NCBI GenBank assembly: GCA_008632985.1
Contig: QPGO01000157.1
Location: forward strand, 62,001-126,000
DNA length: 64,000 nucleotides
DNA from: Psammoneis japonica
Taxonomy: Eukaryota
Direction: 5' to 3'
Part shown: piece by piece, positions 17,771-40,984 of the stretch
How the letters are laid out: the number at the start of each line of letters is the position of its first letter
Numbering within the stretch: the stretch's first letter is position 1
The notes under the pieces: model-generated
Database searches by the model: none
Told to the model about the DNA's origin: nothing
Seen by the model: only the letters and a program-made list of their open reading frames with translations
Position numbers and translations under genes: made by a program

Positions 17771-17771
17771 T

Positions 17772-17904: not shown

Positions 17905-18849
17905 GGCACGTTCCCACCCCAACAATTTCGGCCGCAAAACAAACATGGTTTTGTTCTGCACAAAATTCCTGCAGAAACTGTTGTGCAAGAAAAATCGCAC
18001 ATCTGTTTCCATCCTTCAATTTGCAGCCGCAATCATCTTCAAATGGAGACCAGGACAATTAAAAAATGGGTGACAGCGTGCCACTGCACATGAAATTGAA
18101 AAAAGACACAACATCCGCAACATCAAGCAGTTGCAAGAAAGGCAGTTGACAAGGTTGTTGGAGACAACAAGATTGACATCGAAGGATTGTGCACAAAATT
18201 GGTCTGGAACCCAAAGGCAAGCAGTGTGTCACATGCTCGTTCCACGTCGGCACTCGAGTTGACCTTGATGCCACCCTTGCACTTGCTCAATGGTGCAGAT
18301 TCAAGAACTCAGTTGCATCTGGCAGGGACGATTTTCAGATGGAAGCAGTTGACACCAGAGTGCAAATGAAACGCACAAGACTTTTTAAGTTGGTGATGCA
18401 ACAGTGTGGTTTCGACTTTCGACTCGATTGTCTGTCAACCAACCACATTTGACGGTGCAATTCCATCTGCTGCTGCTCTGCACAGTCTTGAGAAATTTTT
18501 TTAGCAGTTTGAAATTGACAGCTTCTGTGGGTCTGTTGCACTCCAGCACTTCCAGCATTGCACTTGCCTTGTGCAAGACGCAATCGCAACAAGAGTGTGA
18601 TGCTGCTGTGCCAGCAGCCCACGCTCCCACAGGTGAAATCACACACTCAATTCCATGTGCACTCAACAACTCCAGGGGTGTTGCATTGTTGCATTTCCTT
18701 GCCAGCTCCAATGCATTTGCCTCGTGCAAGATGCAATTGAAACAAGAACACCGGAGTGACGCCACTCATCCAGCATCCCACACTCCCGCTGATGCAATGA
18801 TGGGCTCAATTCCATGTCCACACAACAGCTCCAGGGGGTGTTGCGTTGT

Positions 18850-19285
18850 GGCACTGCAATGTGTCCAACACCGTCTGCGCCATGCCCATTGCCACCATCT
18901 GCTGGTGCAACACGTCCAACGTCATCTAGCACGCTGCACCCAATGCCACCCATGCCACCATCCACCAGCGCAACACATCCGACGCCATCTGGTGTGCCAG
19001 GCCCATTGCTGCCTGCACCACCATCTGCCAATCCAACACGTCCAACACCATCCAGAGTGCGCCGCACCCGATGCCACCCCTGCCGCCATCCACCAGCGCA
19101 ACACATCCCCAATGCCGTCCAGCGCGCCATGCCTGTCGCTGTCCACACCGCCACCTGCCAGTCCAACACATCCAATGCCGTCCAGTGCGCCACACCCAAT
19201 GCCACCTGGCCCGCTCCGCCATGTGCTTCTGCAACACATCCAACGCCGCCTGCGCTGCACCCAATGCCACCTGCATGCCATGGAC
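18850..19285. repeat. Degenerate ~60-bp tandem minisatellite (about 7 units)
   Basis: Recurring core CAACAC(A/G)TCC followed by CACCC(A/G)ATGCCACC-like tails. Confidence 0.7.
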
Positions 19286-19917
19286 AGTTCCATCTGATGC
19301 GCCAAGCAACGTGCCACAAGAATGGCTCCAAGTGCAGTTCTCAGTCATGCGCCATTGGCAAATCCGTCATTTAAACCAAGTGATGTGCCACCCACAACAC
19401 TGTCAGCGGCTCCATCAAAATGCACCTTCTGCACCATCACACGTGCCATCCGTCACATGTGCCACCCATGACTCCATCATCTGCACCAAGCAGTGCGCTG
19501 TTGTCAACACCATCGGAGCTGCCAAGTGTGGTCCCAAGCAAAGTGCTGTTGTCTGCTCCATGCCATCACTTTGAACCAAGCAACAAGCAATGTGCCATCG
19601 GTTTCTCACAAAATCGCAAGTTTTCACACAGAGCATTCTTCAGATGCATGGTCTTCTGACCCACGGCAACATTCGAATTCTTGACAAAGCCTGATCCACA
19701 CTGGGGGAAGTCTCCAGCCAGCTGCCAGCTGAAAAAGTCTGCTCGTCAGTGCGTTTGGGGGTTTTGCCAGTGCTGCAATTTTTGCACACACAAAAGACGA
19801 CGAGTCTGTCCTGCGTTCCCAACACCCCCCAACGCACAGATTGACAGACTCTTTCAGTGCAAATTCTGCACAAGATTCTTCAGCCAGCAGCTGGCTGGAG
19901 TCTTCCCCCAACACATC

Positions 19918-20189
19918 TGACAGAAATTGAAGGCAAATGGCAAGAATTCAAACAATGACTCCTGCTGTCTAAATGGCAGATGAGTCTCCGCTCAGAGACC
20001 GTTGCAGGAGCCGAAAGACGTGCAAGTCGGCACAATCGGGCTGCTGTTGTCATTCTTGTGAGCCTTGTGGCTCGAAAGCAAACTGCATCGCGCGCGAACG
20101 CGTGGAACTAAAGCACACAAAACTGTGCGCGGCAAACTAAACAGCGCGCGATGTTTCGCGCGCACCCAAATCCTGTTCAAATCCTGTCA
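19918..20189 (-). repeat. 3' LTR
   Basis: Near-identical to 26720-26995; TG...CA termini. Confidence 0.95.
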
Positions 20190-23100
20190 CTCCCCAGTTT
20201 GCTTGAGGAGCTGCAGAAACAGATTCGACTTCGGATGGGATGAAGTTCCAGAACATGAGAGGGCGGAGAAGGTCCCAGATTTGGGAGTGACCCCAATGCT
20301 TGCTGAGAATGTCAGCAGGATTGCGGGAGCCCTCGATGAAGTGGAACTCAAGGCAACCAGAGGCAATTGCCTCACGCACACGGTGGAACGACAGTGCAGT
20401 GTGTCGCTTGTGTAACTTGGAGTGCGGGATGGTGGCACTGTCTACAACCGACTTGTTGTCACCGAACATGCAACTGACACTGCGGATCGGGACGCCAAGG
20501 CAGCGCAGAGTGATGCGCAGGTCGACAATCTGCTCGACACAATTCCTTGCGGCAACAAATTCAGATCCGCAGGTTGCAGTCTCCACGGTGGCTTGTTTCT
20601 TGGAGAACCAATCAGCCGGGAATTTGTTGAGGAAGTGGAGCATTCCCATGACAGAGCATCCGGTGAGCATGCAATGGCACAAGTTTGCATCGATGCAGTG
20701 GGTGGCAGTGACGAACTTGCCAAGGGGCGGTGGAGCGTCCTTCGGGATCATCTCTTCTGCTTCACCATGCACGGAATGCATCCATTCACAGGCCGGAGCA
20801 GGGAGATCCGAACAGTCGGGCTCTTCCGTGCGAACGCGGAGAGCACCGTGTCGCATCTTGGAGAGGTGCCCACAGACGCGTTTGGCACGATCCAAGTGGC
20901 CTTGACGGGGCGCAGCTCGGAAGCTGGAGAGTGACATGACAGCCGTGGTGGTGTCAATTCGACCAAGGGACACTGCCCATTGGAGTGAACCAACAAGAGG
21001 CTGGAGCTTGTGAATGCCATCGGGTCCCAGTGGTTCGGAAGTGTCCAGCTCGGGGTGGTCACCCTTCTCTGGAGGTGACAGGGCGTTGGTGGCAGGTTTC
21101 TCCCCAAACAATCGGGTGCAGCTGTCGACCATGCACTCGATGCACTTGCGCGGAGACAGGCACAAGGTTCCGTCGGGGTCCCGGGAAAAGTCGCAACCCA
21201 GATGGAACTCAATGGGTCCCGCACCCTTGAGCTTGAACTTGCACTTTTCCGTGAGAGTGTCGATGAAAGATTGAGGGTCCTTCATGGCAATGGCGAGGTC
21301 GTCCACATGAATGCCAATGTGTTCACAGTGGTCGCCGTTCCTGCGCATCCAAATGTCGGGTTCGGCGCGGCAGGGGAAGAAGCCTTCAGCTCGCAGGCAG
21401 TCGGCGAAGTGCTCGTGCCAGCGGAGACCGGAGCTGCGAAGTCCATGCAGTGCCTTGTGGATGACAAGGATGTGTCCTTCGAGTTTGCCAAATTCGGGTC
21501 CAGCTGCAATGTAAAGCTTCTCCTTGGTGGTGGCTTCAAGGCAGGCATTGCCAATGTCGGTGGCCCATGTCTCCAACTCGTTGAGTTCGGCCAGGAAAAT
21601 CATCAGCCGAAGGCCACGGAGGGAGACTGCTCCGGAGCAAACACTGTCGACAGGTGCATCCGTGAGGTGCCCGTCGGCTGCGAGTCGTGCCTTGTGGCGA
21701 CCGTCATGTTTCACGTCGAATGCCAGGTGCACTCGGATCTTCTTGTGTCCCGCAGGAGGAGTGGAAGACTTGAAGGGCCCGCAGTCATGGAAGACTTCGC
21801 ATTCGTCGAGTTGGTCCATCTCGAGATTAGTTGCGTCTCCCCACTTGCGGTTGCCGTTGCGTTCGTCCAGTGACATGGCATGTTTGCAGTTCCGGGGAAC
21901 TTCGCATCCGCACTTGCAGCGAGGTGCAGTGCGGAAGGAGCGAAGCTTGGCTTGGTCGGCCATGCGAAATGGCTTCTTTTGGCGCCTCGCGACAGTGCGG
22001 AACCGCTTCCAGCCATCCGTGTCGAGGAGTCCGTTCTCTGGTGCACAGATGGCACAGGTGACGGGGTCGTCCTTGGTGATGATGGCAAGGGGCTCGGACG
22101 TGATCTCCCCACTTTCCCATTCAAGCATGATGTTGTAGCTTGAGCCTTTCCAGGTTGGGTCGTGAGGCTTCAGAGGTCCTTCGTGTGATGCGATGCGTCG
22201 AAATTTCCAAATGGTGGTGTCTTCGTCTTCTTGCTCAATGTGATTCATGATGTCATTGCAAGCAAGGACTTCCTCGCATTCGTCATTGTTGACAGAGCAG
22301 ACGAACTCAGTGAGCTCGGGATTGCCGTTCACTTTCCATTCGTGGTCTTCGACGGCCTTGACGATGCGAGCTCTGTGGCGTTGTCCATCCTCTTGTGGCT
22401 GCATGAGGAAGGTGCGTCCAATGATGTCTTGCGGATCGAAAACTGGCACCTTGGGTGTCCTGATCTCCCCATCAGCAGAATCGACGGGGTTGTCGTCATG
22501 GCGAGATTTGATGATGGGTTCAGGTGGCTCCCCATCAGGAGGATCAAGACGCAGGTTTCGAACGGCAGGATCGGGGGCAGCGGAGCGAACGTTGGACCGG
22601 TGGAGGATCTTTTGAGTCTCGTCAGATGGGATCTTGAAGGTCATCTGGTGGCTGACGTGCTCAGCAATGCCAACAAAGCGTCCACGCAACTCACGGGATT
22701 CGGACGGCCAATCGGAGTCATCGAGGTGGAAGTGCGCTGGTTCCCACCAGTGAAAGCGAAGCAATGGGCTGATGTCCGGGGTGGATCCAGTGAGAGTCTC
22801 GAGGGGCGTGCGCCAGTGGAGACGTGGGGATGCTGTGTGGTTGAGCATGAAGCACACGCACATGAGCGCCAGGAGCCATGTGTGGGCGGGCGAACCAAAA
22901 CGGTCCATGACAGTGTTCGCCATGCGCTTCACGGTCTGGTGTCGACGTTCGGCAAAGTTTTGGTGTTGCTGGTGAGGCTCACTTTGCCAGCTGGAGATGA
23001 AGAGGGCGCGCAGGATCCCGAGCACTTTGTTGCTGATCTCAACTTGAGCACGGTCGCTGATGAGTTTGGATGGTGCACCACGTTCACGGATCTGATCCTC

Positions 23101-25782
23101 GAGTGTGTTGACAAACTCTTTGTCCGTCTCAGTGCCGCAGACGTCAGTGACGGCAGACTCGGTGCCAACAAACAGTTGGGCGCTGGTGCAACCAGAGTCG
23201 ACGGCCGGGGTGTCGGCACAAACGGTGTCAGTGGCGACAGGCTCGTTGCGGCGGTGCACATTGAGGGCGGGGTTGGGTGATTTGCAGGCCTTGCGAAGGT
23301 GTGCACCGGCGGGCATGCGGGCGTGCTGCGTGGTGCAGTCAAAAGCACGACGGACCGCATCGGCGGGTGGGAAGCCAAAGCAAGGCCGAAGAGACTCGAA
23401 GGGGGGGTCCTTGGGCTTCACAGTGCGCTCCGGAGGTGGAACGTCAACGCCCGTGGGGTCACTCGCATGCAGATGACACTCGTAGAACACGTCGTCGTTC
23501 GGAATGAGGTGATCATCGAGGGCGGACGCGTGATCGTCAGACAAGGAAGCGGACAAGATGGTCTCGTTGACAACGACACGGTGACGGCAGTTGCCGCATT
23601 CGTCAAACAGGTTGGCAGTGGGATCGTCCTGTGGGTCAGAGATCGCGTCGCACCACTGGTCGTCGTCAGTGACAGAGTGATCGAGGACGGAAGGGTCCCA
23701 TGTGTCATCACCGGTGAGGATGACATGGGGCAGGGTGTCCCATTCGGCGTCAGTGTGGGGGCGCATGGCAACACAAGGCAGGCCAGCCTTGACGTCAATG
23801 GGGATGACATGGCCATCAGGAGTGGCAGTGCATTGCAAGCCGTTGGGCACCTTGACAGAGCGATCGTTGACATCCTGTTTGTGCCGTTCGAGCTGGCCGC
23901 AGGAATGGATGGTCTTGCCCTTTCCCGTGTGTGCGCACTGATGGAGGATGGCGATGACGGGACCATGCTGGGTCTCAATGACGGCACCAGCAGCGACAAT
24001 GGGGATGTCCACCAGTTGATGATTGTCAATGCCCTGAACGTCGACTTGGCGAGAGGTGCGTGCGATGACGCGAACGTCGTCGCCAACGATCGACTAGAGC
24101 GCCAGTGCGTGTGGAGCGATGAGCAGAGGCAGAGTGAATGACGTTGTGGTTGTTGACGCGGCGGTGAGTGCGGCCGTTGAGCTCTGTGTTGTCTGCAGAA
24201 GCTGGCGGGGTAGAGGAAGCGGCGGATGGCCCTGGTCGACTGGCATTGGGGGCTTGGTTAGGAGACAACAGACGTTGCAGATCACCGGGTGGCAGTGGCT
24301 TGCGCTTGGTGAGGTGCGCCAGGATGGGATCATCCGAAGTGGCGTCCACATGTGCAGCGGAGTCATCATGGTCAGCAGGAGTCGTGTTGAACAAGTTGAC
24401 ATCACCGTCACTCCCAAGGTGTTGGTCGTGAAGGTTGGCCGCAACAGACTCGTGGCAGTTGCGGGCTCGCGGGTTGCGGGGAGGCGGGCGAGAGTGCTCA
24501 AGGATGATCGCCTTGGAGGAATCGGGCAACGAATCCCAGAGCCGTTGGTGGTCGGGAGGGAGACGTCTCCATTGGACACCGGCGAGGCTGGGACCACGGG
24601 TGCAGGCAGCATTGGCTTGAAGGACGTCAACGTCGCTGTCAATGTCGTAGAACACATCGTCGGACGGTTCCTCGGAGTGGATGTCGTGGGCGTGTGTGGT
24701 GCGTCGGGGAGTTCGAGGTGTCGTCTTGGGTTGAAACGTGCTGTCGTGCTGAGCTGCCGCGGAGAGGAGCAAGCCACAGCATTGATCGCATGTGAGGCTC
24801 TTGCCACTCTGCGCACGATGCTGATCAGCTTGGTTCTTGACAGCACGGAGTTCCTCGACAGGGTGCACGGCATTCTCGAGCATGACGCGCTTCTGTCCTT
24901 CAGAGAAGTGGCAGCTGGCGGGGATGAGTGCCTTGCACTTGCGCAACTGATCTTGCCAATGAAGGATGAACCCGTGGGTCGGACCTTTCCAAGTGCCATC
25001 ACCAAGACGTGCGGTGGTGAGGTGCGTGAGCAGGGTGGAGGACTCGATGGATGCACGGGTGGAGGCAAGCGCGCATTCAGACAAGGAGCGGCAGACGGTC
25101 TGTGCATCAGAGGACCCCACATTTTCGCGAATGAGAGCCTTGCCCTTGTCGGTGAGAAGGATGCGTTCGAAGACGGCGAACATGTGCTTTTGCTGTTCAG
25201 CAAAGAGCAGTTTGTCTTCGGGGCTGGTCGGTTTGTACGACGAGTCTAGAATGCACTCGACGTCTTGGGCACGGGCTTGTGCCACAAGTGAGGTGTGCCA
25301 AGTGTGCCACTGCTTGCCGGATTTGAGAGCCGTGAAAGCGGTGGGATCACGCTTGATGCCTCGCTTGAAGTCTCGCACCGGGTCGCGTGCCTTGGTCGGG
25401 TTGGTGACATGTGGAGGTGCAAGGGGTGAGCTGCCGATGGACACAGAGGACATGCAGTCCGGGCTGAGGCGGCAGGCAAGGAACTCGTCATGCGTGAACA
25501 AAGAGGAGTCGTTGGCAACGTCAAGACCTTTGTGTGCTTTGACAATGTGCAGACTGACTGGTGCTGCTGACATGTTCTTATAACCACGAGGCAAAGGGAT
25601 TGCATCAGTGCCGTTGTCGCACACAAGCCAGTCGATTTGGGACGGTGTGAACGTGAACAGTTCCTGATGCGAGTCCGTGCCGTCTTGGGCCAAAGCCAAA
25701 CGAAGAGGACTCCCAGCACCTTGGGCAAGCACGGTGGAACGTGCTCGAAACCATCGATTTGTTGCTGACGAGTGAGAACCAT
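20190..25782 (-). pseudogene. copia gag-pol, Tyr-depleted
   Basis: Starts MVLTRQQ; FKRGIKRD gag motif; small deletion in the protease motif (ALVDR..GDD) near 24090; integrase SDRAQVE and QNFAER; RT HVDD; RNaseH GSEFVAA, FGDNKSV, NPADILSK. I count 3 Tyr in the 1291-aa ORF. Confidence 0.93.
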
Positions 25783-26719
25783 GGTGGACAAAAGTGGTGT
25801 CAGGACAATCAATTCTGATTGGGAAGCGAGGGTGGACTTGAAACTCGGGTGAGAACAGACTTGACTTGAAACAGACTTGACTTGAAATCTTGAACTGTCT
25901 TAAAATCAGAAGTCGCCGGGCTTTGCTGTCCCGTTCGTTGTCAAGTGCTAAACTTCCCATCCGGTCCGCAGAGTTGTGCCGGCACGTCCGAACCCGCAGC
26001 CAGCGGCGCTTTGGGTTGCTTGCGAGCAGAGCAGCGGGTTGTAAACCCCTGCAGGCAAGCTGACTGGAGGTGGACAAGACCCCCGAACCGTTCTTGTTTT
26101 ATGTCGGTTGGATTTCCCGATCAGGCTGGCCAGTTGACGTGGGCGTCAGGCGCTGTGGACGAACGAACAAACGCGGGAAAGCACCCTCGCCCCAACGCAG
26201 GCTGCAATCACGGCTGCTTGCTCTCACAGTCGTCCTCGTGGACCTGGCAGAACTGCAGAGCACCAGCAGTCCGGGGCAGATCAGGTGCAATGGACTCGGT
26301 GTGCTTGCAGAGTGGTGGCAAAACCGCAGTCCGAAGAGTGGGCACAGGTTCTTGGCCGTGAAGATGTGTGTGTGCATGTGTCTTCAGCGACGAAGATCCT
26401 TGAACATGTGGGGTTCTTGACCGTTAACCGATGAACAGGCACATCAAGGGATGAGGATCAAGGATGGACTTGGATGTGACCGTTGAATGCATGTCTTCAG
26501 CGATCAAAGGCAGCACAATCAATCCAGATGTCCAGCGGCGAGGAGACTTGACAGTGACGTTAACTTCCTGCCGATGCCCTGGCATTGAATGCGCACAGAC
26601 TTGCCGATGTGTGTGGGGCACATGCGGAGGTCCACGCAGAATTGAAATGGCGTCGTTGGTAAATCAACGACGACGATGGCGGTTGCTCAATGGGTTGACA
26701 ATGAGCAAGACTGTCAATC

Positions 26720-26995
26720 TGACAGAAATTGAAGGCAAATGGCAAGAATTCAAACAATGACTCCTTGCTGCTGTCTAAATGGCAGATGAGTCTCCGCTCA
26801 GAGACCGTTGCAGGAGCCGAAAGACGTGTGAGTCGGCATGATCGGGCTGCTGTTGCCATTCTTGTGAGCCTTGTGGCTCGAAAGCAAACTGCATCGCGCG
26901 CGAACGCGCGGAACCAAAGCACACAAAACTGTGCGCGGCAAACTAAACAGCGCGCGATGTTTCGCGCGCACCTGAATCCTGTTCAAATCCTGTCA
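26720..26995 (-). repeat. 5' LTR
   Basis: Near-identical to 19918-20189; followed by TSD ACATC. Confidence 0.95.
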
Positions 26996-29502
26996 ACATC
27001 ATGCGCGTGACAATTGTGTTCCAAGCAAAATGCAAATCAAGTGTTGGTCGATCAAGTGCAGACACACAACTGCTGGCACACAACAAGGCACATGGTTGCC
27101 ACTTGCCGGTGCGCCACTGCCTCTTGCCGATGGTGTGGGTCCACTGACATGATTGCTGTGTTTCCAAGACAAGCCAGTTGGCATCAACATGCAACAAACG
27201 AGTCGTCCCTGCCATGCACCGTGCATCATCGATCGTTGCTCTGCACTGCAAAATGGTGCATGAGTCATCAAACAACTTTCCATCTTTGTGGAGAACATGA
27301 CACACCAGCGATTGGCAGCCTTTTGTGCCCGTGACAGATGAGGTGGGGTTCTGATGTGTCACACAGCAACAACACAGACCACCGGGATGGGATGGACACA
27401 ACAAACTGACGGTCATGGCATGGAGGTGACGGTTGGTTTCTTTTGAATTGGAGCTTTGTGAACTTTTCCATGCGTGCGTGCTGTCACCCATTTTTTCAAT
27501 GTCCTGGTCTCCACTGTGATGACAGGTGTTGGTCGTCATAAATTCTCTCCTGCAAATGTAACTTTCATGGTGAATTTGGTGTTTTGGGAGCTCGAAAGTG
27601 CCGCGTCACAAGATCTCCCATTTTTCTGTTTCTCGTTTCTCCACTCCAATCTGCGCAACACCATGAACCATGATGGCACCTGCCGCATGAACGGACCTGT
27701 TCACACACGAACAACCATCCTGTCTGCGAAGGTGAGAATGCAGAGAAAAGTCAATGAGACCACGCTTGATGCGATCAAGTTGTCAGAATTTTGATTTTTC
27801 ATTGTTGTTGTGGCTTGTGACAACCATGTTGACTGATGGCATTTTTGATGTCTTTGTTTTTCTTGTTCAGATTTCGCGATGGGATTCTTCACACACCACA
27901 TGTCGATCGACTTGATGCTGACTTGAAACAGCAACACATGGTTTGATGCAACGGGGTGATGTGGTTCTTCAATGCACACTCCTGGTGTCATCTGCCAAGC
28001 CTTCGATTTGATTGAGGGTCAAGAACACACAAGGTTTAAGAAAAAAAGGCTTGTGCTCCATTGCAGTCGAACATGATGATGGACAAGCCATGCGCACTTG
28101 TTTCATTGCTCTTGCTGCAAGTTGGCACAACAACGCTGGTGGGGGTCAACTTTTTGCACAGTGGCTTTGGCAATGTGCCACACAGCGCCTTAGTCTGTTG
28201 TTTGTTTGTCCTGTGTTTGTGATGCACTCAGATCACTTTGAAGCCATGGGGTTTGATGTTGTCTTTGTGTGAGTGTTTTTGCAGTTGTGTTGGAGTTTCA
28301 ATGCTCCAACTCGCCCTGTGTCCTGTGACCTGGGGCCTTTCTGCTCGGTTGCCCCACGCCGTGGTGCATTGTTTCTTTTTGCTCTGGCTCCAGGCTTTCC
28401 CATTGCCGCTGCATTGCCCTGACCTTCATTCAATGGAGTTGCAACAAAGGAGCACTGTTTGGATGATGTTGCCGTTGCCTTTTGGAAACTTGAATGAAGT
28501 GCAACTCATGCCATGACAGTGCTCCTGTCAACGTGACTGCACGCCAGAGTGCAAAAAGAAAACACATTCATCGTGCTTTTCTCTCTGCACTTTCTCTTGC
28601 CAGTGGATTGGATGCTTTTCTTCTGACCTTCACTTGCATTGTCATGAATCTCAAGTGCAGAGCAATCGCAAAATGGACAACGGACGCGTTCCAGCTCTGG
28701 GTGGGACCTCGCACCACTGCACTGTGACATCAACAGTTTTTTGGATCGCATCGCATGTCGCGCGCGCACATTTCTGCGTGTCACATTCTACGAAAATGTC
28801 TCATGCTCCCTGTTTTGCAAAGCCAAAGGCTTTCCATTTTCAACAGTTGTGAGAATGAAAATGTGCTGGGCACATTCTTCAATGTCTGCAGAACACACAC
28901 CCGGGCAAACTGCCATTGATGTGCTCCAAGTGTGAAGGAGGAGATGCGTTCGTAAAATTGCCTCTTTTTCTGTTGGTGATCATTCACATTTTCATTGCAG
29001 CACAAATTCACTGTGGAGCTTGCGCGCAGAATTCTGCGGGCCCAATGTCACACAGAGTCCCACCTGGGACTGGAGTCCGTCAATGATTGTTGCTGACAAG
29101 GTTTGTGCAGTCAACTGTCTTGACTGCTGCTTGTGCTCCAGACAGAGCAGCTGGCCAGCTAGAGCAGTCTATGGCAGCATTCTCACTGAGCTCAAAATGT
29201 GATTTTGATCTTTTTCACGGCTTGAATTGGTTCCCAGCCTGATGCCCGCAAATGCGCAAATTTGGCCCAATTGTGTTTGTTTTGCGGCCGAAATTGTCAG
29301 GGTGGGAACGTGCCTCAATTGAAATGTTGTCTGACCAAAGGCATTTTGATTTGCATGGTGAAGAGCACTGCCCTTGGTCAGATGACATTTCAATTGATTT
29401 CCCGAGAAGTTGACATTCGAGTGCGGATGGGTGGACAGACTGAAGACAATTGTTTCTGGTGCTCTTCTGCACAATTTCCACGCAATGACTCTGAGAGCCG
29501 AA

Positions 29503-31410
29503 GAGAAAATGGATGTCATGCAGTTGGTGCAGTCGCACGAGCAAGGGGCAGTTGACGCATGCATTTTTGCAGGCATTGCGTGCAAATTTTGAGCTGACTC
29601 TGGTGCGGTGCTCCTTTGTGATGGTGGGTTTTTGTTGTCTTCCAGGCATGGTGTCAGCATTCTCTGTGGACTGTCATTTGGCATGTGGTCTGGACAGGTG
29701 GTGGTCAATTGCATCCAGGTCATTTGGTGTTTGCAGAGGGACAGACCTGCTCCATCTTCCCACTGGGGTTGCCTGGAGCTGATCTGAGAGGCGGAAATGC
29801 GGGATCCCCTGAGGCAATGGTGGGTTGCCCTGACTGTGGCGACACTCATCCTCACATTGACGCAGCTGCACACTTCAGAATGTGGCTTTTGCCACTCATC
29901 TGAAAGTTTCGACACTGTCTTGTGGAGCATCACCTTGGCTTCTTTGCCGAAAAGCCCGTCGTGTGATGCAATGAATGGTGCGAAGTGACGGCATTGTTCC
30001 AGACATGGCTGGAGGTGCTTGCGCTTCTTCTCACGTTCGTGGCTTGCCAGGACTTCTTCTGGTGTTTTGGACAGGCATGACTTCGCGTCCGTGTCGGGGA
30101 TGCGAACATCATCCCAAAATCTCATGCCGAGAAGAGCTCCACGATCGCCATCCTTGGACTTGTTGGAGTTGGTGTTTCCTGAAGTGCCATTGGGGGTGCT
30201 TGAACTTCCCACACTGTGACCAGTGGGGTTGATCAGGGGTTCGTCGCACACACAGGAAGGTTTGTGAGCCTTGCCCATCAGGTCTCCGAGGTTGTCACGC
30301 ACTTCATCGTGTTGTGAGATGACTGGGCCACCCTTCTTGCACTGAAGAGCATGACTCATGGAGAGTTTGCATCCACATCCATCACAGCACTCCGGGAGGT
30401 TGGGTGGAGCACTGCCACACCTTAGAAAGAGTGCGTCGTGGAACTCTTGGCATGAGAGTTCTGTGCCGTTCAGCGTCGAAGGGCGCACTGACAGCCACAC
30501 TCCAGCCTTGGTGCTGTGCTTGACAGCTCTGGCCTGAAGGTTGGGTGGGGTCCCGAGGAACTTTTTGAGGGTCTCCCCATGTGCTTTGACTTTTCTGTCA
30601 GCTGCTTCCTGTTTCACTTCGCGCATGGTGTCCTTGTGGACTGCGGAGAAGAACTGGGAACGGCCGCGGAGTGAGTCTGTCACGTGGGAGCACGTGAGAG
30701 CACTTGCTTCACAGTTGTGAGCTGCGGACTCAGTTGGACGAGGGATGGACAGTCCCAAGAATTTGATCGGGAGGGCGGATCGTCGTCGGCCAAGGTCTGG
30801 CGGCCTGTTCCAGCTCCAGGTGCTCTGCTTTTCATCACGCGAGAGGCCGATTTTCTGCGCAGTTTGGCGCAATTGACTCCTTCAGTTTTGATCGTTTCGA
30901 AAATCGAAAGGTGAGTGTGCACCCAAAAATGCATGTAAAGTGTGCACTTGCCCTTCGATTTGGCAAAAAACGGATTTGGAAAAAGTCAATTGCGCCAAAT
31001 GCACAAATTTCCAAATGATGGGAATCGAACCCGCGCAGAGCACCTGGAGCTGGAACAGGCCTCAGCCTGTCAATGCTGGCAGGAATTTGCGCTGCATCGC
31101 GCGCTCCGCATCCGCAAATGATTCTCCACAGTCCTTTGCTTCCCATTGGACATGCTGCCACCGGTGTTGCAGGGACTTTTGCAGACCGGCACAGGCGGTC
31201 TGAGGGTGGTGAATCGCAATCTTGGCGAGTCCTTGGACGACCGAGGTTCACAACTCGGCTTTTTCCGCTGGCCAACGGTCATGTGTGTCCGTCTCACCGA
31301 TGAAGCCTCCAAGGCAGCAGCCACCAGACTTGACAGTAAAGCCCAGATCTCCAAAGTGTGCTCCAGCGTTTTCCAGGTTGCGTTCTGGGACAACTAGGAT
31401 GTTCTCATTG
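29503..31410 (-). mobile_element. 5'-truncated non-LTR retrotransposon with restriction-like endonuclease (CRE/NeSL/R2-type)
   Basis: End of RT (CLGGFIG for YLGGFIG; AGLQKSLQ..WQ), CCHC knuckle CDGCG...HALQC, HDEVRD, D.R.PDTD, EREKKRKH. Confidence 0.85.
30802..31061. mobile_element. MITE family B (~260 bp) inserted in the LINE
   Basis: 27-bp perfect TIR GGCCTGTTCCAGCTCCAGGTGCTCTGC; LINE coding sequence continues on both sides. TSD not resolved. Confidence 0.8.
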
Positions 31411-31766
31411 TTTCCAAAAAATTCTTTCTTTCGTTGTCGAGGTCGCGGATTTGGTCGCGGATGACGTTTGCCCCCCCGACGCGAAGGCTTGCGCGGCGGA
31501 AACACGAGTCCTCCTACGTACAATTCTACGAGTGTCTGCTTCAGTAGTATGTCGACATTCTTATGTTGTTTCTACGCGGACGGATAAAGGTAAGTTATGA
31601 CGATCTTTTTTCCCGCCATTTTCAATTTTTTGTATGATACCGCTCGCTCGTCATATCGTCGCGTTGTTGACGCACCGAACTCGTTTTGGTTTCTGTGGCA
31701 CAAGTGGTGACTGAAACAGGAAGCACCCTACGGTAAATACCACGGTTTTCAACGCGCCATCCCACA

Positions 31767-33972
31767 ATGGCGGACAACAGTAGCCCTGGGTCCCAAGTGG
31801 CGGTGAAAGAAGAACGAGAAGAAGTCGTTCATGAAACGAGCACCCGAACGAGTACGTCATCCGTCCCTGCTGCCAGCGGCATGCAGCAAGAACGTGGCGT
31901 TGCTGGCGGGGGGACGAGCCAAGATACATCGCGAGTCAACGGACAAGGAATGTGGAACGCGTGGAAGCGAAACTTTAAATCGCCTCTATTGGCCCTGTTG
32001 GATTTGTTTGACAACGCAATTGATGCATCGCTCGTGATTGATGAAGAAGCCTTTCACTTCAAAGGCCGAGGAAGAATCCATGTTATGGGTGATAAGGATG
32101 CCGAGGGAGTCTCCAAAGGGGTTTCAATCATCAATAACTGTCACAGCAGAATCCCTCCAATCGAAGAGGTCCTTGAGGTATTCAAAAGTAGCAAAGGCTC
32201 TCAGGCGATCGGCGAAAACGGCGTCGACACGAAACAAGCATGCGCTAGTTTGACCGATCTCAGCTTTGTAATGACTCGAAACAGAGACACTTGGGGCTTG
32301 GGTGTGATTGCTGCAGAAGTTCAGCGAGTTGATGGTATTGTTCTCCCATCTATTACCTTTCGTCCGAACCGTGAAGATCTTTCTCGTCAAGTCAAGACGA
32401 ACCCGGTACTGTAAGTGCGGCTTCTCAGGAACAATAACTGTTCTGAGACATGAATATACTGACTCTTGATCTTGTTTCGGATTTGTATGATTAATGTACC
32501 GCAGGGCCTTTGCTAAGTGTGTGTCCTGCTATGGCGATGGAGATTTCGAGACAGGTATTATGCGGCTCCTTACACATTGCAACGCCATGACAAGCCATCA
32601 GTGACGTAGGGCCCTAGTGATGACCACGTGTTTCTTATGGTACTCCATCAGCTACGCCACGGATCAGAATCCCTTGTCAGTAGCGAGAGCAGTGACAATG
32701 AAGGAAATATTGATTACGGCCTTCGAGTGCAGCACTTGATGCAACAGCTGACCGATGAGTTGCCACGCCAGTACCTTCACATTCCGTCTGAGTTTGGCAT
32801 TACTGTCAATCACCAACAGATCAGGTTCCAGCATTGGGAAAGAAGAATGGTCGAAATTACCAGCTTCCTGTGCAAAGTAAACCCTCATGATGAGTGGAGC
32901 ACGGCAGAGGAATGGGAAAGCCCTACAGAATCGATGAGCCTGCGTGTGTATTGTGGGTTCGATCCAGCAAGACTTGACGGAGAGTCTTCGTCCTCGTTGT
33001 CTCTTTATGTTCACAGCAGGCATTCTGGTCGTCTCATTACGGTGGCACCCGATGCTCGCAACACGTTGGGCCTAAACAACTCTGGGACGACCTTTGGCCA
33101 AGGGCTCACAGTTATTCTAGACGATTACATGTCAACATTGCCTCTAGACCCTACAAAGCAGGGACTTGCGTTTGCACAGCAGGCTGCAGGCGGGGTATAC
33201 AAAAAGAATCTATTCGCCTGGCTTGGTGTCTATGCTTCTCTTTACTACAATCGGCGCCTCGAGAAATTTGGCGGCACCAAGGGCGAACTCACGAAAGGCG
33301 TGCAGCAACAGCTACAGGCCGTTCAACGTCTTCGCGACAAGGACAATGTGAAGTCTTTCATGTGCGGAAAATTCACATGCTACGATTCTCTTAGATTCAA
33401 ACAATATTCCGACAAGAGCATTAGAAAATCGAGTAGTCCGTGCAAAGGTGTGTTTGCTTCGCGAGTTCTGAACTGTTTTACTTTCTTCGTCCGTCGCTCA
33501 CCACCGTCGTCGTATCTATTTTTTGTATAGTTACTCTAGGCGCAGATTCTCTGGTAAACCTGGATCCGCACCATGAAAACTTCGGACGCCCAGTAAGAAA
33601 CGGAAATCCACGAGTGACGACTCCACTCTGCCTCCAGCAAGGGCGACACCGCCTCCTGTATGGAGTCCGCGGCATTTACTAATGGCAAATTCACAGAGCG
33701 ATCGGTCGGACACCGGTGCCGTTTCCGTGTCCCCTGACAGCCGTGGTAGTAGTGCGCATGCAGAGCCGACGAATGTGTGTGCAGACAGTCGTCGTATTGC
33801 GTCGCTTAGCAAAACAGTAGAGAGGCATCGAGAGAGGAAGAAGCAATATAAAGAGGTGATCTCGCGTCAGCAAGAATTAAAGATTGCTTAAGGCCACAGA
33901 CAGAGTCTTGAGAACGAGATTAAAACCTTGAAGCAGAGGCAGCATCGTTTCATGAATTCTCCTGAGAAGTGA
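31767..33972 (+). pseudogene. MORC-like GHKL ATPase, duplicated pseudogene copy
   Basis: Copy of 57800-60066 with GENGVG->GENGVD, TGG->TGA stop near 32602, an 8-bp insertion at 32607-32616 and deletions in the last exon. Confidence 0.85.
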
Positions 33973-34363
33973 GATCACAATGAGAGTTCCGTCGTGCAGT
34001 GTGTCTAACAGCGACTGCATCATTAATGTGCTCGTAAACCCAGTTGGAGTTCAAAGTTGCTTGTGCATGCTGTGGCAGTTTGAATTGCTTTTTATTGCTT
34101 TGTTGTGAATGTCTTAGTTGTCTTTCGCTGCTCGTGCCATTGTTCGGCACCATCAGGCCAACACCGTGCTCTTTTGATCGAATCAATCGTTTTCAGATGA
34201 AATCAGAAATCAGAATCTTGATCGATCGCACCGCTGCAAGGAGACAAAAGACCAAAGGCGACAACGTCTTCGCTATCTTCCCATGCAGCACCACTTGTTA
34301 GTGTTGGTTGTCGCGTTAGCTGATCTGTAGAGACTCGATTGTGTAAGGTTCATGGCTGAAAAA

Positions 34364-34983
34364 ATGGCAGGAACTCCGAGCGCAGCGTCTCCTTCCACTA
34401 ACCCGTCTGGATCGAGCACCCACCCGCCGCACCTCCGTGTCGTCAAAGCCGTTGTCCCACCACCATCTCAGGCTCCCGTGGAAACTCCTCAGAAGCAAGA
34501 GCCCGGCGACTCTCCTGGACGAAAGACCCACAGCAAGGTCCCAGTGATTCGCCACTCGGCGCTCTTGCCTAAAGAAGAGCAAGAGCTCGAAGAACGCCGG
34601 AGGAAAGAGAGGTTGGATGAGAGACTTGAAGTGCAGAAGCAGCATCGTCAAGACAAGGTTGACTTTCATTGCAGGAACGAGTCTCCCATGATTAGCCGAC
34701 AGCTGTCACAGCACAGGATGCAGCTGCCAAACAGTCGCGGAACTTTCCTCACAGCATTGGGCCGGAGTTCCCAGAGCACAAGCGCAAGTCTGATGAAGCA
34801 TCTTTTCTCCCAATTCGTCCGTTGCAGGAACCCGCTGACAAACGCCACCGTATCGAACAAGATGACCAAAGCAATGCCGGTAATGAGAAAAAGCCATGGT
34901 GGAATAACCTTTACTCGAAGGCAGCGATTTGCGTTGTTGCTCTCATTGTCGCGGAGCGTCTCCTTTTGCGTTCCAAGAACTGA
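34364..34983 (+). pseudogene. Small putative tail-anchored protein, frameshifted duplicate
   Basis: Copy of 56745-57364; frame changes after RNESPM. Confidence 0.55.
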
Positions 34984-35547
34984 GCATGAGTGGGCCGGGA
35001 TAATACAGGAGGGAAATGACACTTGGGAAAGCCTTTGGCGCGAGCATTGATTCTTTGAATTCGCACCGACTATCTGTTCTTTGATGCATGGAAATGAATC
35101 TCTCCCACATCTGAAAGTTGATCTGCGGCAATGTGTAGATTTGCGTTTTTCCTTCTCGGTTGATAGAAGCGAGGCACAGCGGTAACTGTGCATGCTGCTG
35201 TCGTCCCACCTTTCGTGCACTGCACTTTTGCACAACCAATCTCGAAAGTACATGCTCATCAGCAATGATGGAAGGTGGTAGTAAAGAATGACAGGCATTT
35301 TTAAATTCTAAAAGAAAAGCAGGGAAAATGGCTGCTCCTGATTGAAAGGGTAAGAAATCATCATGCACTGTTTTCTGGGTTATCTAATGTACAGACAGCC
35401 CGTAGCGTAACAGCAATCCTATTAACGTCATTTAAGAATCAAAAAAGCAATCTAGGAAAAGCGGCTGCTCCTGGTTGAGAGGGTAAAAAATCATCATGCA
35501 AGTTTATCCCATCCGTCAAGTTTCTTTCGCACTGCCGAGATCCTGGG

Positions 35548-36100
35548 TCACACCACTCGTCTGTTGACCAGAAAAGATCCTAGACACAAATGAGCCGCAG
35601 CGGAAACGGCTCCTGGTGAGGATGCAAGGGGATGAGCTCCGACGGATCTTGCCAGCATCACCGCCAAGGCTGAATTCTGCATCCCAGTTTCGATGGAGAT
35701 GGTCCACGCCGTTTTCTTGGTAAACCCAAGTCCCAACCTGGGCACCACATAACCCACTCCAAAGCCGATAAGATGAAGCACCACCACCGAGAGCACAATT
35801 TGTGGCAGTGACCCAGCTGGCCCAACGGATGACGACAAGAGACTTGATGCATTGTCAGCCACCACTCCACCGCAAATTAGAGACACCAACAGAACACTTC
35901 CAAACGGTGTGAATCGAGCCAATTGATTGCTGAGCTTGGGTGCCTTGGTTTTCACAGCCATTCCCAAAATGACAGGAAGCAACACTGCCCTCGCCATCAC
36001 ACTGCACAGGGCAATGCTGCTGATGCTGATGGCACCACTTCCTGGCTGGGAAACCAATGGCTTGACTAGAAGTGGTGTCACCACAGAAGCCAGAATCGTG
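35548..36100 (-). pseudogene. 3' fragment of a bile acid:sodium symporter, TpA/CpG-hypermutated duplicate
   Basis: Aligns to 55298-55830; ETGMQNS motif. Confidence 0.9.
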
Positions 36101-36360
36101 CCTCTTGGTTGTTGGATCCTCCAACTTGCAAGAGCCGACAGAATTTAAAAAAGGAGGATTCTTGTGTTGAAGAGAGGTTTCGCAAGCCCCAACTCGAAAG
36201 AGCGGTGCCTGCGCAGCCACCACGGGTGTGATGACAAGTTGAAGATGATGTCATGAAGACATGTTTTAAAACATGTGTCATTTCACAATGACACGCACAA
36301 TGCATTCCTTCACGAAGCAAAAATGTCACACTCTCCGAGTTTTGACATCGCCGGTCATTG

Positions 36361-36692
36361 CAACAGGAATCATTCAAAAATGTTGCAAGAGTCACAATTG
36401 GCACCCCGCACAAGGAAAAACACCAAATCGTGTGGAAATGTGCACAGTGTCGTGCGAAAAGGTGATTGGAGCTGGCAACTTTTCGGGAACTCAATTGAAG
36501 TGTCATCTGACCAAAGGCATTTTGATTTGCATGGTGAAGAGCAACGCCTTTGGTCAGATGAGACATTTCAATTGATTTCCCGAGAAGTTGACATTTGAAC
36601 GCGGATGGGTGGACAGACTGAAAACAATCATTTCTGGCACTCTTCCACACAATTTCCACGTGATGACTCTGAGAGCCGAATGATTCCTGTTG
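36361..36692 (+). mobile_element. MITE family A, complete copy (~330 bp)
   Basis: 15-bp TIRs CAACAGGAATCATTC / GAATGATTCCTGTTG; internal hairpin at ~36491-36575. Confidence 0.8.
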
Positions 36693-36730
36693 TTTTTGAC
36701 AACCGGTCATGAGCTGTTTTCTGCACATTT

Positions 36731-36946
36731 CAACAGGAATCATTCGGCTCTCAGAGTCATCACGCAGAAATTGTGTGGAATGGCACCAGAAACAATTGTT
36801 GTCAGCCTGCCCACCCATCCGCACTCAAATGTCAACTTCTTGGGAAATCAATTAAAATGTCATCTGGCCAAAAAAGGCACTGCTCTTCACCATGTAAATC
36901 AAAATGCCTTTGGACAGATGACACTTCAGTTGAGTTCCCAAAAAGT
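36731..36946 (-). mobile_element. MITE family A, partial inverted copy
   Basis: Reverse complement of ~36478-36692, starting with the TIR. Confidence 0.8.
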
Positions 36947-37752
36947 CACTGTGGCTGGATTCGTGTCTCAGAAATTTGGAGCAGATTTCTGTGCAATTGG
37001 CGCAACACGTCATCAAGTTGAAGTTCATTTTGTTGATGTGTTCCAGCTGCATGTGAACCAAGTCATGCACAAAAATGACATTTGTGCAATTTTTGAAAGG
37101 CCCCCAGCTTGCGATCGATCTTTCACCACCAAAAGCATGGATTCAAGCAAACACAAATGTTTTGCAACACTGGCAAGACTCGTGTGAGTGTTGCCATGTC
37201 ATTGTTGTTGTGCCATCTGTGTTTTTCATTGTGTTGAAAGATTTGCAACACAGTGGATGATTTTCGGCGAAAATGTTGCCGTCATTTGGGTGTCACCCAA
37301 ACACATCATTCTGCAATGCTGCTTGGTGGGTTTTCTGCCTGCAAAGAAATCTCAGCACAAATCTGCTGATGTGCAATCAGCATTGAGTCCACTGAGGAAG
37401 TTTGTGATGCATGTCCCATGTGGACTTGAATGCCCCTCAAAAAACTGTTTAAATGTTCGTGCTCTAGAAGCCTGCAAAAGTCAATCCGTCCAAGCATTTT
37501 GCATGAAAATGCTGCATGCACTAAAAGACACATAAATTGCACTCAAAATCCATTGTCGTTTTGTGGGTCACCTGGGACTGGAACACGTCTGTTGGCGGGA
37601 AAACAAAAAGCACGAGATTTGTCACGCACCCGGTTGCTCGATGATGGTGCTTGCCATTCTCCCAAAACCCATGACTTTTCATGTTGCGGCACAGAGCGAC
37701 CTTCTACAAACATCAGCAAAGCCCCCTCTGCCCCGCAACATAAAAAATCACA

Positions 37753-40700
37753 ATGAGTGACCTCAGAAATTCATTCGTTGCCAAGCACATGCAACTCGTC
37801 TTCGGGGACAAGCATCTTCATGACCATTGGATGCCGGTGGACCTCTGGGCAGAACATTGCAATGCCAAATTTGGTTTTTCCAATGAGGGTCTCCGCGCAA
37901 TGGGCAGAGAGACAAAGAAGACATGCAAAAACCGAGCTGGAGTGTCAAACTTGACAACAACAAACAACATTGTTGGCGATGGTGTGAGTCTGCACAAGAC
38001 AGAATGCAGTTGTCAGATCAATGGCAAACAAGGCAACCACACATTCTTTCTTGTTGCTGTTGGGGTTCCAGCTGATTTCTTCATCCTCCAACAACTGGGA
38101 ATGACAGTGTTGAAGCTTGGCTGCAAAGTGGGGTGGTCTGGAAACAAGTTGGGAGAGACTCAGTGCAACGAGCAGAAATGCTCACAGAGCATTCGGAGAT
38201 GGATCCTGACATCCAGAACACGGAGAAGGCACAGTGAGCAAAGAAAAAGCAGTGCACTTCAAATGAAAATGAAAATGACGACATGTCCATTGAAGATTTG
38301 GAGTCCACCAGGCAAGACAATGTGCCACGATTCGACCATTGGGATTCTGCTCGAGCCCGTTGCATCTTTGCTCCGCCCTCTGTTTGCCCATCTGATGTCA
38401 ATGTAAAGGCGGCTGCACAAGATGGAATCAACATTCGATCAGCTGTTGTCAGCCATGCCCAAGGGTGCAAATCTGTGTTGCCTGGTCAGGACGACAACAA
38501 TGTGGCTGCCGACTGTGAAAAGGTTGCCATGAGGCATCGTGTGCTGCACATCATGGTGGCACTTCAGACAGTGCTTGACAATCTCAAAGGCAAAGGAAAT
38601 GAGATTGAAGGCAACATGAGTTGGGGTGAGTGTTGTCAACATGCTGTCACCAGACTGAAAGAAGATGGCATCACGGCTGTGTCCAACTGGCAGATGGTTT
38701 AGCGGCGGCATCGTCATTTGGCCGACGCCGGTGATTGCTTTCCTCAAAGCCACAACCAAGGCAAACAACAGCTTCCATCCTTCTTTGCCAAGAATCCTGA
38801 GGTTGAGAATGCATTTGCTTGACACGCAATCAAAAACTTGAAGGAACTGTCGGTCGAATTGATGCACGAGCACCTCCACCAAAAAATCACACCGGCTTTC
38901 ATGCCAAACGCAAAGAAAGACGTTGTGGTGGTGGATGATGAAGACTTTGAACAAGCCATTGATTCCATGGGTGAGTCTCCAGCACTCAGCACAGAAGAGG
39001 AAACTGCAGAGGAAGAAGCCAAGAGTTTGTTTCTCAAACAGCATGAACTCCGCTCACTTTCCATTTCTGCAGCAGCATGCTGGATGCATCTCCTGGGATT
39101 TAGATGCACAAACAGAATGAAAGGATTTCATGTGGATGGTCACGAGAAGCCCGCCACAAAGTTGCATTGAAAGAAGTTTACAAAGGAGTGTCTTGAGTTG
39201 GAGAAAAGGTGCTGCAGGTGGATTCAATTGCCCTTGGACCAGGCGACCGAGCTCATGAACCAATCATCAGTTCTGCATCAGGGTGAAAGCTCTGCACTCA
39301 CTTGGGATGGCAATGTGTTCATCAAGTTTCATGTGGATGACTGCAGCGGTTTCCATGATGTGATTGCGCAATCCGATGACTTGAATGCCAAGCGGCATGG
39401 CGGCCATCAGAGTTTCCACTTTCCCACTGGTGAAAAGCCCATCATCATGTGAGGACAAGATGAGGCTGTCTGTGAACAATTCCTGTTGACTGAGAAGGCG
39501 TGGGTGGGACCCAATGGCGAGATGGCTCTTGTCCCGAAAGACAAAGGTCTGGGTGTTGTGCTGTCTCCACTCACATCTCATGAGTTTGGTTTGTTGTGTG
39601 ATCTCAACAAGGAGCTGCTCAAGTGAGTCAATGAAAAGAGAAGTGAAACCAAGCACAATGACGAGAAAGCAGCAAAAGAAGCCAGGAAAACAAGCCAGGA
39701 AAACAAGCAACAAGAAGGACTTGGAGAAGAGCCCATTCCTGGTGAAATTGGAGCATGGCTCCAATGACGAGGGCTGTTGGAACTGCAATCACATGGCGAC
39801 ACAGTTGGAAGACTGTGTTGATGTGTTGGACGAAATGTGCCCAGAATTTGAGCACGTGTTCTTCTTTGATCACTCGGCAGGTCATGCAAAGCAGAGGGAG
39901 GACAGCTCATCAGTTGACAAGATGAACCTGGGCTGGGGCAGGAAATGCAAAATGAGAGCAAGCAAGCAGGCTCACAGACAAATGCACTGGACAGCATGAC
40001 AATGCTCACAGACTGCAAAGTGGTGAGACACAAGCAATGGCATTCCAGGAGGAAGACAAAGGGCCTCACCTTGTGGCTCTGGAAGAATGACAGTGACGAA
40101 AGCACGACATTGTGACGAGGGAAATCAAGGCCGTTGACAAGCTCAGAGAAGAGCCAGAAAATGATCTGAAGCAAAATGATGCAAGCCATGCAGCTCTCAA
40201 GGGTGCAACCAAAAGGGGTTTGCAAGAAGATTGCAAAAAAGCTGGCATTCCCACAAAGAAGACCATTCCAAAGATGGCACCTGGTTGGATGGGCAAGCCC
40301 AAAGGATTGCTGCAAGTCTTGGTTGAACGTGGGTTGATTGGCGCAAAAGCCTGAAACATGGAAAGGGAGGGACAAAGGACAAGTGTGGGAGCTGCAAGGA
40401 AAATGCCAAGCCCGCAGAGCTGCTTGCCTCCTGCAAAGATTTTGCAAATGAAACAACGCAACTTCAGCATCATGTGAAGCTGCTGGGGGTCCGAGCAATC
40501 TTGACTCCAAAATGCCACATGCCCTCAACCTGTCACAGAAATGAGGGAAAGACAATTTCAAAAAATCAGTTGATTGTTGCTTGTCAGAGGAGGTGTTGAC
40601 GCTTGAGCGCATCTGCAAGTTTGCCAAACGCACAAGACAGTGCACCCAAGCTTGCCATGTGATTGACAATGGACACATGGAGGACACAGAGAGGGTCCAT

Positions 40701-40800
40701 GAATTTGGACCTGTTGTGCTTGACAAGATGATCAAGATGTTGATTTTGAGTCCAAGTTCGTTTGCTGCGTTGCGGAGAACGAGGTTGCAGCGATCTTGGA
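37753..40800 (+). mobile_element. Degenerate IS630-Tc1-mariner-like transposase
   Basis: GQDE, WVGPNG..LVPKDKG, EHGSNDEGCW (from EYG...GYW), FFFDHSAGH, PKGLLQVLVERG, DFANE, TPKCH. Many stops and frameshifts; the segment after PKCH appears deleted. Confidence 0.8.
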
Positions 40801-40984
40801 GTGAGTTTCGGAGCAAATTTTCAAAATCGTGCAGCCACAGCATGATTGCACGGGGACATTTTTATGACGTCAACATGACAATCACTGTCATTGTTAGAGA
40901 GCATGACATTTCATTTTATGCCAGCTCACTGTGCGTGCATCTCTACACCAAGGAGTGTCACGACAAATCCAGTCACAGCTCTAA

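Follow-up and report, generated by a model that had tools for sequence, protein, structure and literature searches.

Evidence for a targeted TpA to TpG/CpA mutation process in a repeat island and an adjoining host duplicate of a diatom genome

Introduction

Targeted A:T>G:C hypermutation at TpA has, in the literature searched, been described previously in a single 2026 preprint, and there only for a chlorarachniophyte, Bigelowiella natans, in which integrated viral DNA undergoes TpA-specific hypermutation (Mettrop et al., bioRxiv 10.64898/2026.01.13.699255). According to the available text of that preprint, two integrated viral regions received 231 of the 302 mutations found in mutation-accumulation lines; 230 of these 231 were A>G or T>C, all of these GC-biased mutations were located at TpA, and the rate was about 1000 times background. 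The same text describes TpA-poor clusters rich in CpA and TpG throughout the genome, reports that TpA-poor coding sequences are enriched for reverse transcriptase and transposase domains, and proposes, without proof, that an ADAT2-type deaminase is involved (Mettrop et al., 2026). Diatoms are not mentioned in the available part of the preprint, and the literature searched in full text yielded no description of the TpA signature in diatoms, the B. natans preprint being the only match.

We analysed one window of one diatom genome, a stretch of 64 000 nucleotides from Psammoneis japonica (contig QPGO01000157.1), in which a repeat island nearly devoid of TpA adjoins a duplicated piece of a host BASS transporter gene. 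We conclude, with a probability of roughly 0.8, that a targeted process converting TpA to TpG or CpA at the level of DNA has acted on the island and spilled into the duplicate.

Compared with B. natans, as portrayed in the available text, the locus shows the same near-restriction of A:T>G:C change to TpA, with TpG or CpA as the product (13 of 17 such transitions in the BASS copy, and 30 of 34 conserved tyrosines of a Copia element replaced by Cys or His), the same confinement to particular regions (TpA O/E 0.05 versus 0.63, with edges placed within 500 bp) and the same loss of TpA accompanied by gain of CpA and TpG (TG+CA O/E 1.64 in the island versus 1.13 in host DNA). It differs in that the organism is a diatom, hence a stramenopile and not a rhizarian, and in that the targets, in place of giant-virus or virophage inserts, comprise an LTR retrotransposon and other repeats together with the host-derived DNA beside them. 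Erasure is also near saturation here, at an O/E of 0.05 as opposed to 0.45 in the NCLDV region of B. natans, and the process is deduced from fixed differences instead of mutation-accumulation lines. To what the available text of the preprint contains, the present locus adds an LTR timing test, a tract of spill-over, CpG decay in the same place and a 3'-neighbour rule, so that the novelty with respect to that text is internal evidence on timing, extent and context.

RIP of ascomycete fungi, in the descriptions available to us, resembles the process considered here in that it disables repeats, depends on dinucleotide context, may extend into unique DNA alongside and leaves a strong dinucleotide skew. 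Its direction is opposite, however, because C>T change at CpA creates TpA, whereas TpA is here destroyed. Furthermore, RIP strikes both copies over their duplicated length and lowers GC, whereas here the donor and the distal half of the copy are spared, and GC rises, to 0.52–0.58 in the island.

Results

A pseudogenised BASS fragment differs from its source mainly at TpA and CpG

Part of a BASS/SBF transporter gene is present twice in the window. The donor segment, 55299..55830 (+), lies within a gene whose coding region occupies about 54769–55892, and the second copy, at 35568..36099 (−), is a pseudogenised 3' half of the gene that is still open over 177 codons. The donor open frame, 55104–55892, was assigned to PF01758 (sodium/bile-acid symporter; 92.1 bits against a cut-off of 24.3, E = 4.7e-26) and has 1940 homologues, the best of which come from diatoms and share 71% protein identity, with named matches in Nitzschia, Cylindrotheca, Pseudo-nitzschia and Bacillariaceae. 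When the window was compared with itself by BLASTN, 55299–55830 (+) aligned with 36099–35568 (−) over 532 bp, ungapped, with 40 mismatches and 92.5% identity. Contigs of run X1, which may be the window's own sample, match 35560–35920 and 36061–36390 with 0 differences, and with that proviso we consider that neither the copy nor its junction is an assembly artefact.

The 55-kb copy contains 19 TpA. In the 35-kb copy eight of these read TG, five read CA and one reads TC, while five are unchanged, in the contexts CTAG, CTAA, TTAT, TTAC and CTAG. Ten CpG of the 55-kb copy have become TG or CA and three further CpG are altered in other ways. The differences outside TpA and CpG number 13 of 40, one of them running in the opposite direction (TG>TA). 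Transitions at A or T bases are concentrated within TpA (13 of 38, versus 4 of 213 elsewhere; Fisher test, odds ratio 27, p = 4.6e-9), and those at G or C bases within CpG (10 of 60 versus 4 of 221; p = 5e-5). The exchange is also asymmetric, with TA>TG/CA at 13 of 19 sites and TG/CA>TA at 1 of 80 (p = 6e-11); that is, 1 reverse change in the donor segment as opposed to 13 forward changes in the copy.

These results agree closely with the original prediction, whose count of 19 TpA with 13 TG/CA, one TC and five retained is reproduced exactly by our site list, whose four example changes are all present in the alignment, and whose claim of co-occurring CpG to TpG/CpA change is matched by the ten CpG sites above; the Fisher test of TpA against other contexts that it proposed is the one just reported. 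It had also identified the correct source segment, although the coordinates that it gave for source and copy (55298–55830 and 35570..36100) were 1–2 bases off.

The fragment is the end of a larger host duplicate, of which only the repeat-proximal tract is affected

The BASS fragment forms one end of an inverted duplication of ~4.7 kb, in which 31420..36099 (−), hereafter copy C, corresponds to the donor segment 55299..60430 (+), copy S, with ~93% identity in reliably aligned columns. The earlier claim that non-transposon DNA beside a transposable element had been affected is borne out, with the correction that this DNA is not a lone gene piece. A Pfam search with the ORFs of the duplicate found no family. 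The donor ORF 58254–59372 (−), which likewise belongs to no Pfam family, has only three homologues, of low copy number, and for this reason looks like host DNA rather than a transposon.

Copy S has a TpA O/E of about 0.6, like other host DNA. When the 131 donor TpA in reliably aligned columns were arranged by position on copy C, the best change point fell between 34030 and 33922 (p = 1e-6, for a point picked post hoc). In the tract proximal to the repeat, 34030..36099, 31 of the 57 donor TpA have become TG (15) or CA (16), and the TpA O/E is 0.34. In the distal part, 31421..33921, the TpA O/E is 0.62 and 10 of 74 donor TpA have changed in this way, as compared with 12 reverse differences. The affected part of copy C is therefore only the ~2.1 kb nearest the repeat at 36.1 kb, and both the donor and the distal half are spared. 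Copy C still has about 44 TpA in 34030–36099 and about 99 in 31421–33921.

CpG loss in copy C follows the same division, with 21 of 104 sites changed to TpG or CpA in the proximal part and 7 of 145 in the distal part (p = 2e-4). The decay of silenced DNA through methyl-CpG deamination thus shares the tract; it accounts for the CpG changes only, however, and is far slower than the TpA loss seen here (CpG O/E is still 0.91 in the Copia element described below).

Purifying selection was considered as a cause of the distal sparing and rejected. The copied ORFs carry stops and indels. Three ORFs were compared, two of them from the spared part; each has stops in copy C and differs from the donor more often nonsynonymously than synonymously. 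In the spared part itself we find stops, indels and nonsynonymous to synonymous ratios of 33:17 and 21:14. Selection on copy C is therefore not the explanation for the TpA kept in its distal part.

Copy C is enclosed by an island of nearly TpA-free repeats

Copy C lies within a 26-kb island (15.2–41.0 kb), the repeat parts of which are a left block, 15183..31420, and a right block, 36100..40950, that adjoins the BASS copy. Together these parts contain 61 TpA where about 1197 are expected (O/E 0.05), as compared with an O/E of 0.63 in the host DNA that makes up the rest of the window, and the interval 15501–18000 has zero TpA. The edges of the island at 15.18, 31.4 and 41.0 kb are sharp, being resolved to within 500 bp, and the left edge coincides exactly with the position at which a Copia fragment ends (15182).

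The left block includes a full-length Ty1/Copia element, 19915..26995 (−), with LTRs at 19915–20189 and 26717–26995 and a TpA O/E of 0.08, and an older internal Copia fragment, 15182..17681 (−), with strong CpG loss. The assignment of the full-length element is based on an RVT_2 match (E = 1.2e-20), on a tblastn alignment collinear with residues 27–1850 of P0124, and on 279-bp LTRs of 95% identity. The blocks at 27–31.4 kb and 36.1–41 kb are classed as repeat DNA from internal repeats and contig pile-up alone. Because X1 contigs pile up at 36.2–38.2 kb to 25–90 times the single-copy figure, we take the block adjoining the BASS copy to be an abundant repeat family. Among 31 further island ORFs, a Pfam search at E ≤ 0.05 returned no family and only one sub-threshold kinase match. 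Contigs of run X2 provide no cover over 36227–41562, which we do not take as evidence on expression.

Both strands of 15000–26100 carry many overlapping open frames of 200–1300 codons, in several frames, because TAA and TAG stops have been lost through TpA erasure.

If the trigger were homology, as in RIP but with A:T>G:C chemistry, high-copy repeats would be paired and the reaction would leak 1–2 kb into the flanking BASS piece. Such a scheme accommodates the high copy number of the neighbouring repeat (the 25- to 90-fold pile-up in X1), an affected tract that starts at the repeat junction and fades after about 2.1 kb, and the fact that every heavily affected stretch in the window is repeat-related. 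The BASS tract, which has no contig pile-up of its own in X1 (37 against about 56) and a spared homologous donor but adjoins a high-copy repeat, fits a need for a repeated target as well as its opposite. We nevertheless think the scheme unlikely. With ~93% identity, the duplicate and its donor also form a repeat pair, and still neither the donor nor the distal half of the duplicate has been affected. At the three other repeat/host junctions (15.18, 31.4 and 41.0 kb), TpA counts per 500 bp reveal no leakage into host DNA, and the main target in B. natans is single copy according to the available text (Mettrop et al., 2026). The existence of two homologous copies, of which only the repeat-adjacent part of one is affected, argues for position rather than copy pairing. 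We therefore prefer a trigger that would reside in location within a silenced or repeat domain, marked perhaps by silenced chromatin or by small RNAs, and not in the homology of two copies.

Residual TpA reveal a context rule that is common to host-derived DNA and repeats

The 61–62 TpA that remain in the island are enriched 5.5-fold for TTAA and 3.3-fold for CTAA/TTAG, and ATAT or ATAC/GTAT account for 0 of 62 of them, versus 21% of host TpA. Within the tract of copy C, adenines had changed at 21 of 57 positions when followed by T or C, and at 10 of 57 when followed by G or A (p = 0.03). These observations are compatible with an influence, exerted strand by strand, of the base 3' to the A, in which T or C would be permissive, G less so and A protective. 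Since the rule is common to host-derived DNA and repeats, it supports the action of one process on tract and island.

No usable strand bias was detected, either in the tract (15 TG versus 16 CA) or in the Copia element (20 Tyr>Cys versus 10 Tyr>His; p = 0.10). TpA is its own complement, so that strikes on either strand yield TG or CA, and A>G after T is indistinguishable from T>C before A in these counts.

In some protists 5-hydroxymethyluracil is found at TpA. This brings into view a chemistry in which the modified base would be the thymine of TpA, converted for instance to 5-hydroxymethyluracil by a TET/JBP-type enzyme as a silencing mark; mispairing with G would then give T>C with no need for an adenine deaminase. 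Because of the self-complementarity of TpA, all counts fit T>C before A equally well; the strand symmetry is in keeping with such a route, and the co-location with CpG decay suggests a mark-like system acting on symmetric sites. On the other side, the sole experimental precedent proposes adenine deamination, itself without proof in the text available (Mettrop et al., 2026), and we give the thymine route a low probability. The chemistry that we favour would be deamination of the adenine after T by an ADAT2/TadA-type polynucleotide adenosine deaminase, with inosine copied as G. On our analysis, trigger and enzyme are both much less certain than the process itself.

Divergence of the Copia LTRs places the change after integration

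LTR retrotransposition yields elements whose two LTRs are identical at the moment of integration. Over about 250 columns, the LTRs of the Copia element now differ at 9 positions, made up of three adjacent CA/TG double mismatches, one TA/CA, one CG/TG and one other difference; seven mismatched positions are thus TpA-related, as compared with one CpG change and one other. A CA/TG pair is accounted for by independent hits on both strands of one ancestral TA. Such pairs are the commonest adjacent double mismatch in every island repeat pair (33 of 110, 5 of 7, 4 of 6 and 3 of 6), whereas they make up 1 of 11 between the host paralogues and, between copies S and C, 2 of 34. Because LTRs that were initially identical now differ mainly by CA/TG pairs, the change took place on chromosomal DNA after integration. 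This upholds the earlier statement that a reverse-transcription error was not responsible, as differences of this kind are possible only post-integration.

The same element bears on rate. It is young, with a CpG O/E of 0.91 beside a TpA O/E of 0.08, and only one LTR difference lies outside TpA and CpG, which shows TpA change to have been, on this measure, apparently many times faster than background. When the older Copia fragment is compared with the younger element (15183–17580 and 21620–24085, respectively), the older has TG or CA where the younger has CG at 93 sites, and the reverse is true at 12. CpG decay is therefore much slower than TpA loss, yet far advanced in old copies.

ADAR hyper-editing is a modification of RNA that is known only from animals, and its 3'-neighbour preference is for G, unlike the T/C preference found here. 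In the descriptions available to us it resembles the present changes in being A>G with U/T preferred before the edited A. If double-stranded transcripts underwent ADAR-like A-to-I editing and were then reverse-transcribed and re-integrated, the result would be A>G with a 5' U, the classical ADAR-type preference according to the available text of the B. natans preprint (Mettrop et al., 2026), and the inverted repeat formed by copies S and C could supply double-stranded RNA if co-transcribed. LTRs derived from one template should agree, however, and among their 9 mismatched positions there are three CA/TG double mismatches. In addition, the duplicate includes intergenic DNA and genes on both strands, its changes are strand-symmetric (15:16) and it is affected in part only, and the 3' preference is T/C, not G. 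The discordant LTR pair excludes reverse-transcription error and RNA editing before integration, and we regard the RNA route as highly improbable. What is observed, unlike ADAR editing, is strand-symmetric change on integrated DNA with its own 3' preference.

Homologues place the change in the 35-kb copy

Pairwise differences alone are directionless, and in the distal part of copy C the 12 reverse differences match the 10 forward ones in number. One could suppose on this basis that the 35-kb copy retains the old state and that the 55-kb copy gained TA through RIP-like C>T change at CpA/TpG. Polarisation at the DNA level is ruled out because the best BASS homologues are only 71–75% identical in protein and synonymous sites are saturated, so the outgroup comparison called for by the original prediction was made at the protein level, taking the majority state among 32 diatom BASS homologues at each amino-acid difference.

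Both BASS frames are open over 177 codons, of which 38 differ, 23 of them nonsynonymously. At 21 of the 23 amino-acid differences, the residue prevailing among the homologues is that of the 55-kb copy; the 35-kb copy is favoured at one (V111I) and one is a tie. At ten differences all 32 homologues share the 55-kb residue, the invariant columns including G28, T35, V38, R132, V148, L161, T168 and S171. Homologues side with the 55-kb copy at all eight nonsynonymous TpA changes, the votes for donor and copy being 21:0 at L14P, 22:8 at T23A, 32:0 at V38A, 7:2 at N82D, 31:0 at L97S, 2:1 at M118V, 32:0 at L161S and 32:0 at T168A; five of these (L14P, V38A, L97S, L161S and T168A) are near-unanimous. 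A protein comparison does not reach the five TpA changes of the BASS copy that are synonymous (CTA>CTG four times and an AAT>AAC step once); these and the noncoding changes are polarised by the asymmetry alone.

Judged by this homologue majority, the 35-kb copy is the changed one at nonsynonymous sites, with TA ancestral and TG/CA derived. The reverse case, TG/CA ancestral with TA gained by the 55-kb copy, did not hold at any nonsynonymous TpA change, and it is refuted for nonsynonymous sites. Since the donor also has the TpA density of other host DNA, and since conserved tyrosines are gone from Copia, we attach a negligible probability to reversed polarity. That the frame of the BASS copy is still open is explained by the genetic code, in which the destruction of TA cannot turn a sense codon into a stop.

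Loss of conserved tyrosines damages the Copia element

In the Copia frame of 1318 residues Tyr occurs 3 times, His 69 times and Cys 50 times, and the RT motif is HVDD in place of YVDD. We scored 34 columns in which Tyr is present in at least 80% of 30 full-length Copia homologues (homologues with 3.3–4.3% Tyr). In the window element Tyr persists at two of these and is replaced by Cys at 20, by His at 10, by Phe at one and by Leu at one, while 72–100% of other conserved residues are kept. No Tyr codon is possible without TA, so this loss represents damage and not codon preference. Among related metagenomic Copia loci, the best-scoring 80 of 571 confirmed have TpA O/E values of 0.44–1.07 and include no TpA-free relative, in a set that is biased to intact copies because it consists of best scorers and because Tyr is part of one of the two search patterns.

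TpA is under-represented in most genomes, and host DNA in the window is itself TpA-poor (O/E 0.63), but selection or codon bias against TA in transposons, acting without a special mutator, is refuted by an affected dead host gene fragment, by Tyr to Cys/His changes that destroy the RT motif and by TA-normal Copia relatives, and has practically no chance of being correct, just as the original prediction had said of transposon codon bias.

Discussion

The reading that we favour, targeted TpA to TpG/CpA change on DNA, is as follows. The BASS fragment is the decaying end of an inverted segmental host duplicate that lies inside a retrotransposon/repeat island. Locally targeted mutation of integrated chromosomal DNA converts TpA to TpG or CpA through A:T to G:C transitions and has led to near-complete TpA erasure in the repeats. 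From the 36.1-kb junction, alone among the four island edges, the process has spilled ~2.1 kb into the duplicate, where it has converted roughly every second TpA (13 of 19 within the BASS piece), and raised CpG decay accompanies this conversion in the tract.

This widens the phenomenon described for B. natans to a second major lineage, the diatoms, and to transposons. A dead host gene fragment provides a clean, outgroup-polarised control for the mutator, and the locus offers a defined tract with remaining TpA targets, a context rule, a link to CpG decay and a change dated to the time after integration.

We further suggest, at slightly less than even odds, that diatoms defend themselves by domain-guided base editing of DNA, through which TpA is erased from silenced regions as a mirror image of CpG methylation decay. 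The spill-over tract, the CpG decay and the 3'-neighbour rule would then be the footprint of an enzyme that follows heterochromatin. If a defence of this kind is indeed present in both Stramenopila and Rhizaria, it would be an old and widespread eukaryotic counterpart of RIP.

There are consequences for annotation and dating. TpA-free DNA lacks TAA, TAG and Tyr codons, and dead elements therefore carry very long open frames that gene callers mistake for genes. Unless TpA sites are masked, LTR divergence will yield dates that are far too old.

Additional features of the window

A unit of ~190 bp occurs at 36490–36680 and, in inverted orientation 60 bp away, at 36743–36934, with a third copy 7 kb off at 29314–29502. 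The copies are 86–89% identical and their differences are mostly CA/TG double mismatches; the unit may represent the terminus of an element that is as yet unclassified. Over 20000–27000, where Copia is coded on the − strand, the + strand has a strongly positive GC skew (0.10–0.23), which could be either an effect of the mutator or the element's own composition.

Paralogous GlcNAc-transferase genes (PF11397) of about 76% DNA identity are located on either side of the island, at 1655–2851 and 42125–43237, and served as a host control with ordinary TpA content. In the GlcNAc-transferase gene, X2 contigs skip 75 and 70 bases with GT..AG ends (43200–43276 and 43522–43593), whereas X1 contigs do not. 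Because of these skips X2 behaves like cDNA, though it is recorded as DNA. X2 also includes a BASS contig, at 54487–55553.

The BASS frame is broken at 55124..55125 (+), within 55119–55131, where a C run that separates the conserved stretches IMPL and AAWW is one base short. In an X1 contig an additional A after 55124 brings the frame back, and the printed X2 contig rows are without that insertion; the break may be either an assembly indel or an allele. Just 3' of the BASS stop codon there is a ~260-bp tandem duplication, 55816–56071 and 56114–56384 (77% identity), and only part of it is present in the copy at 35.4–35.56 kb.
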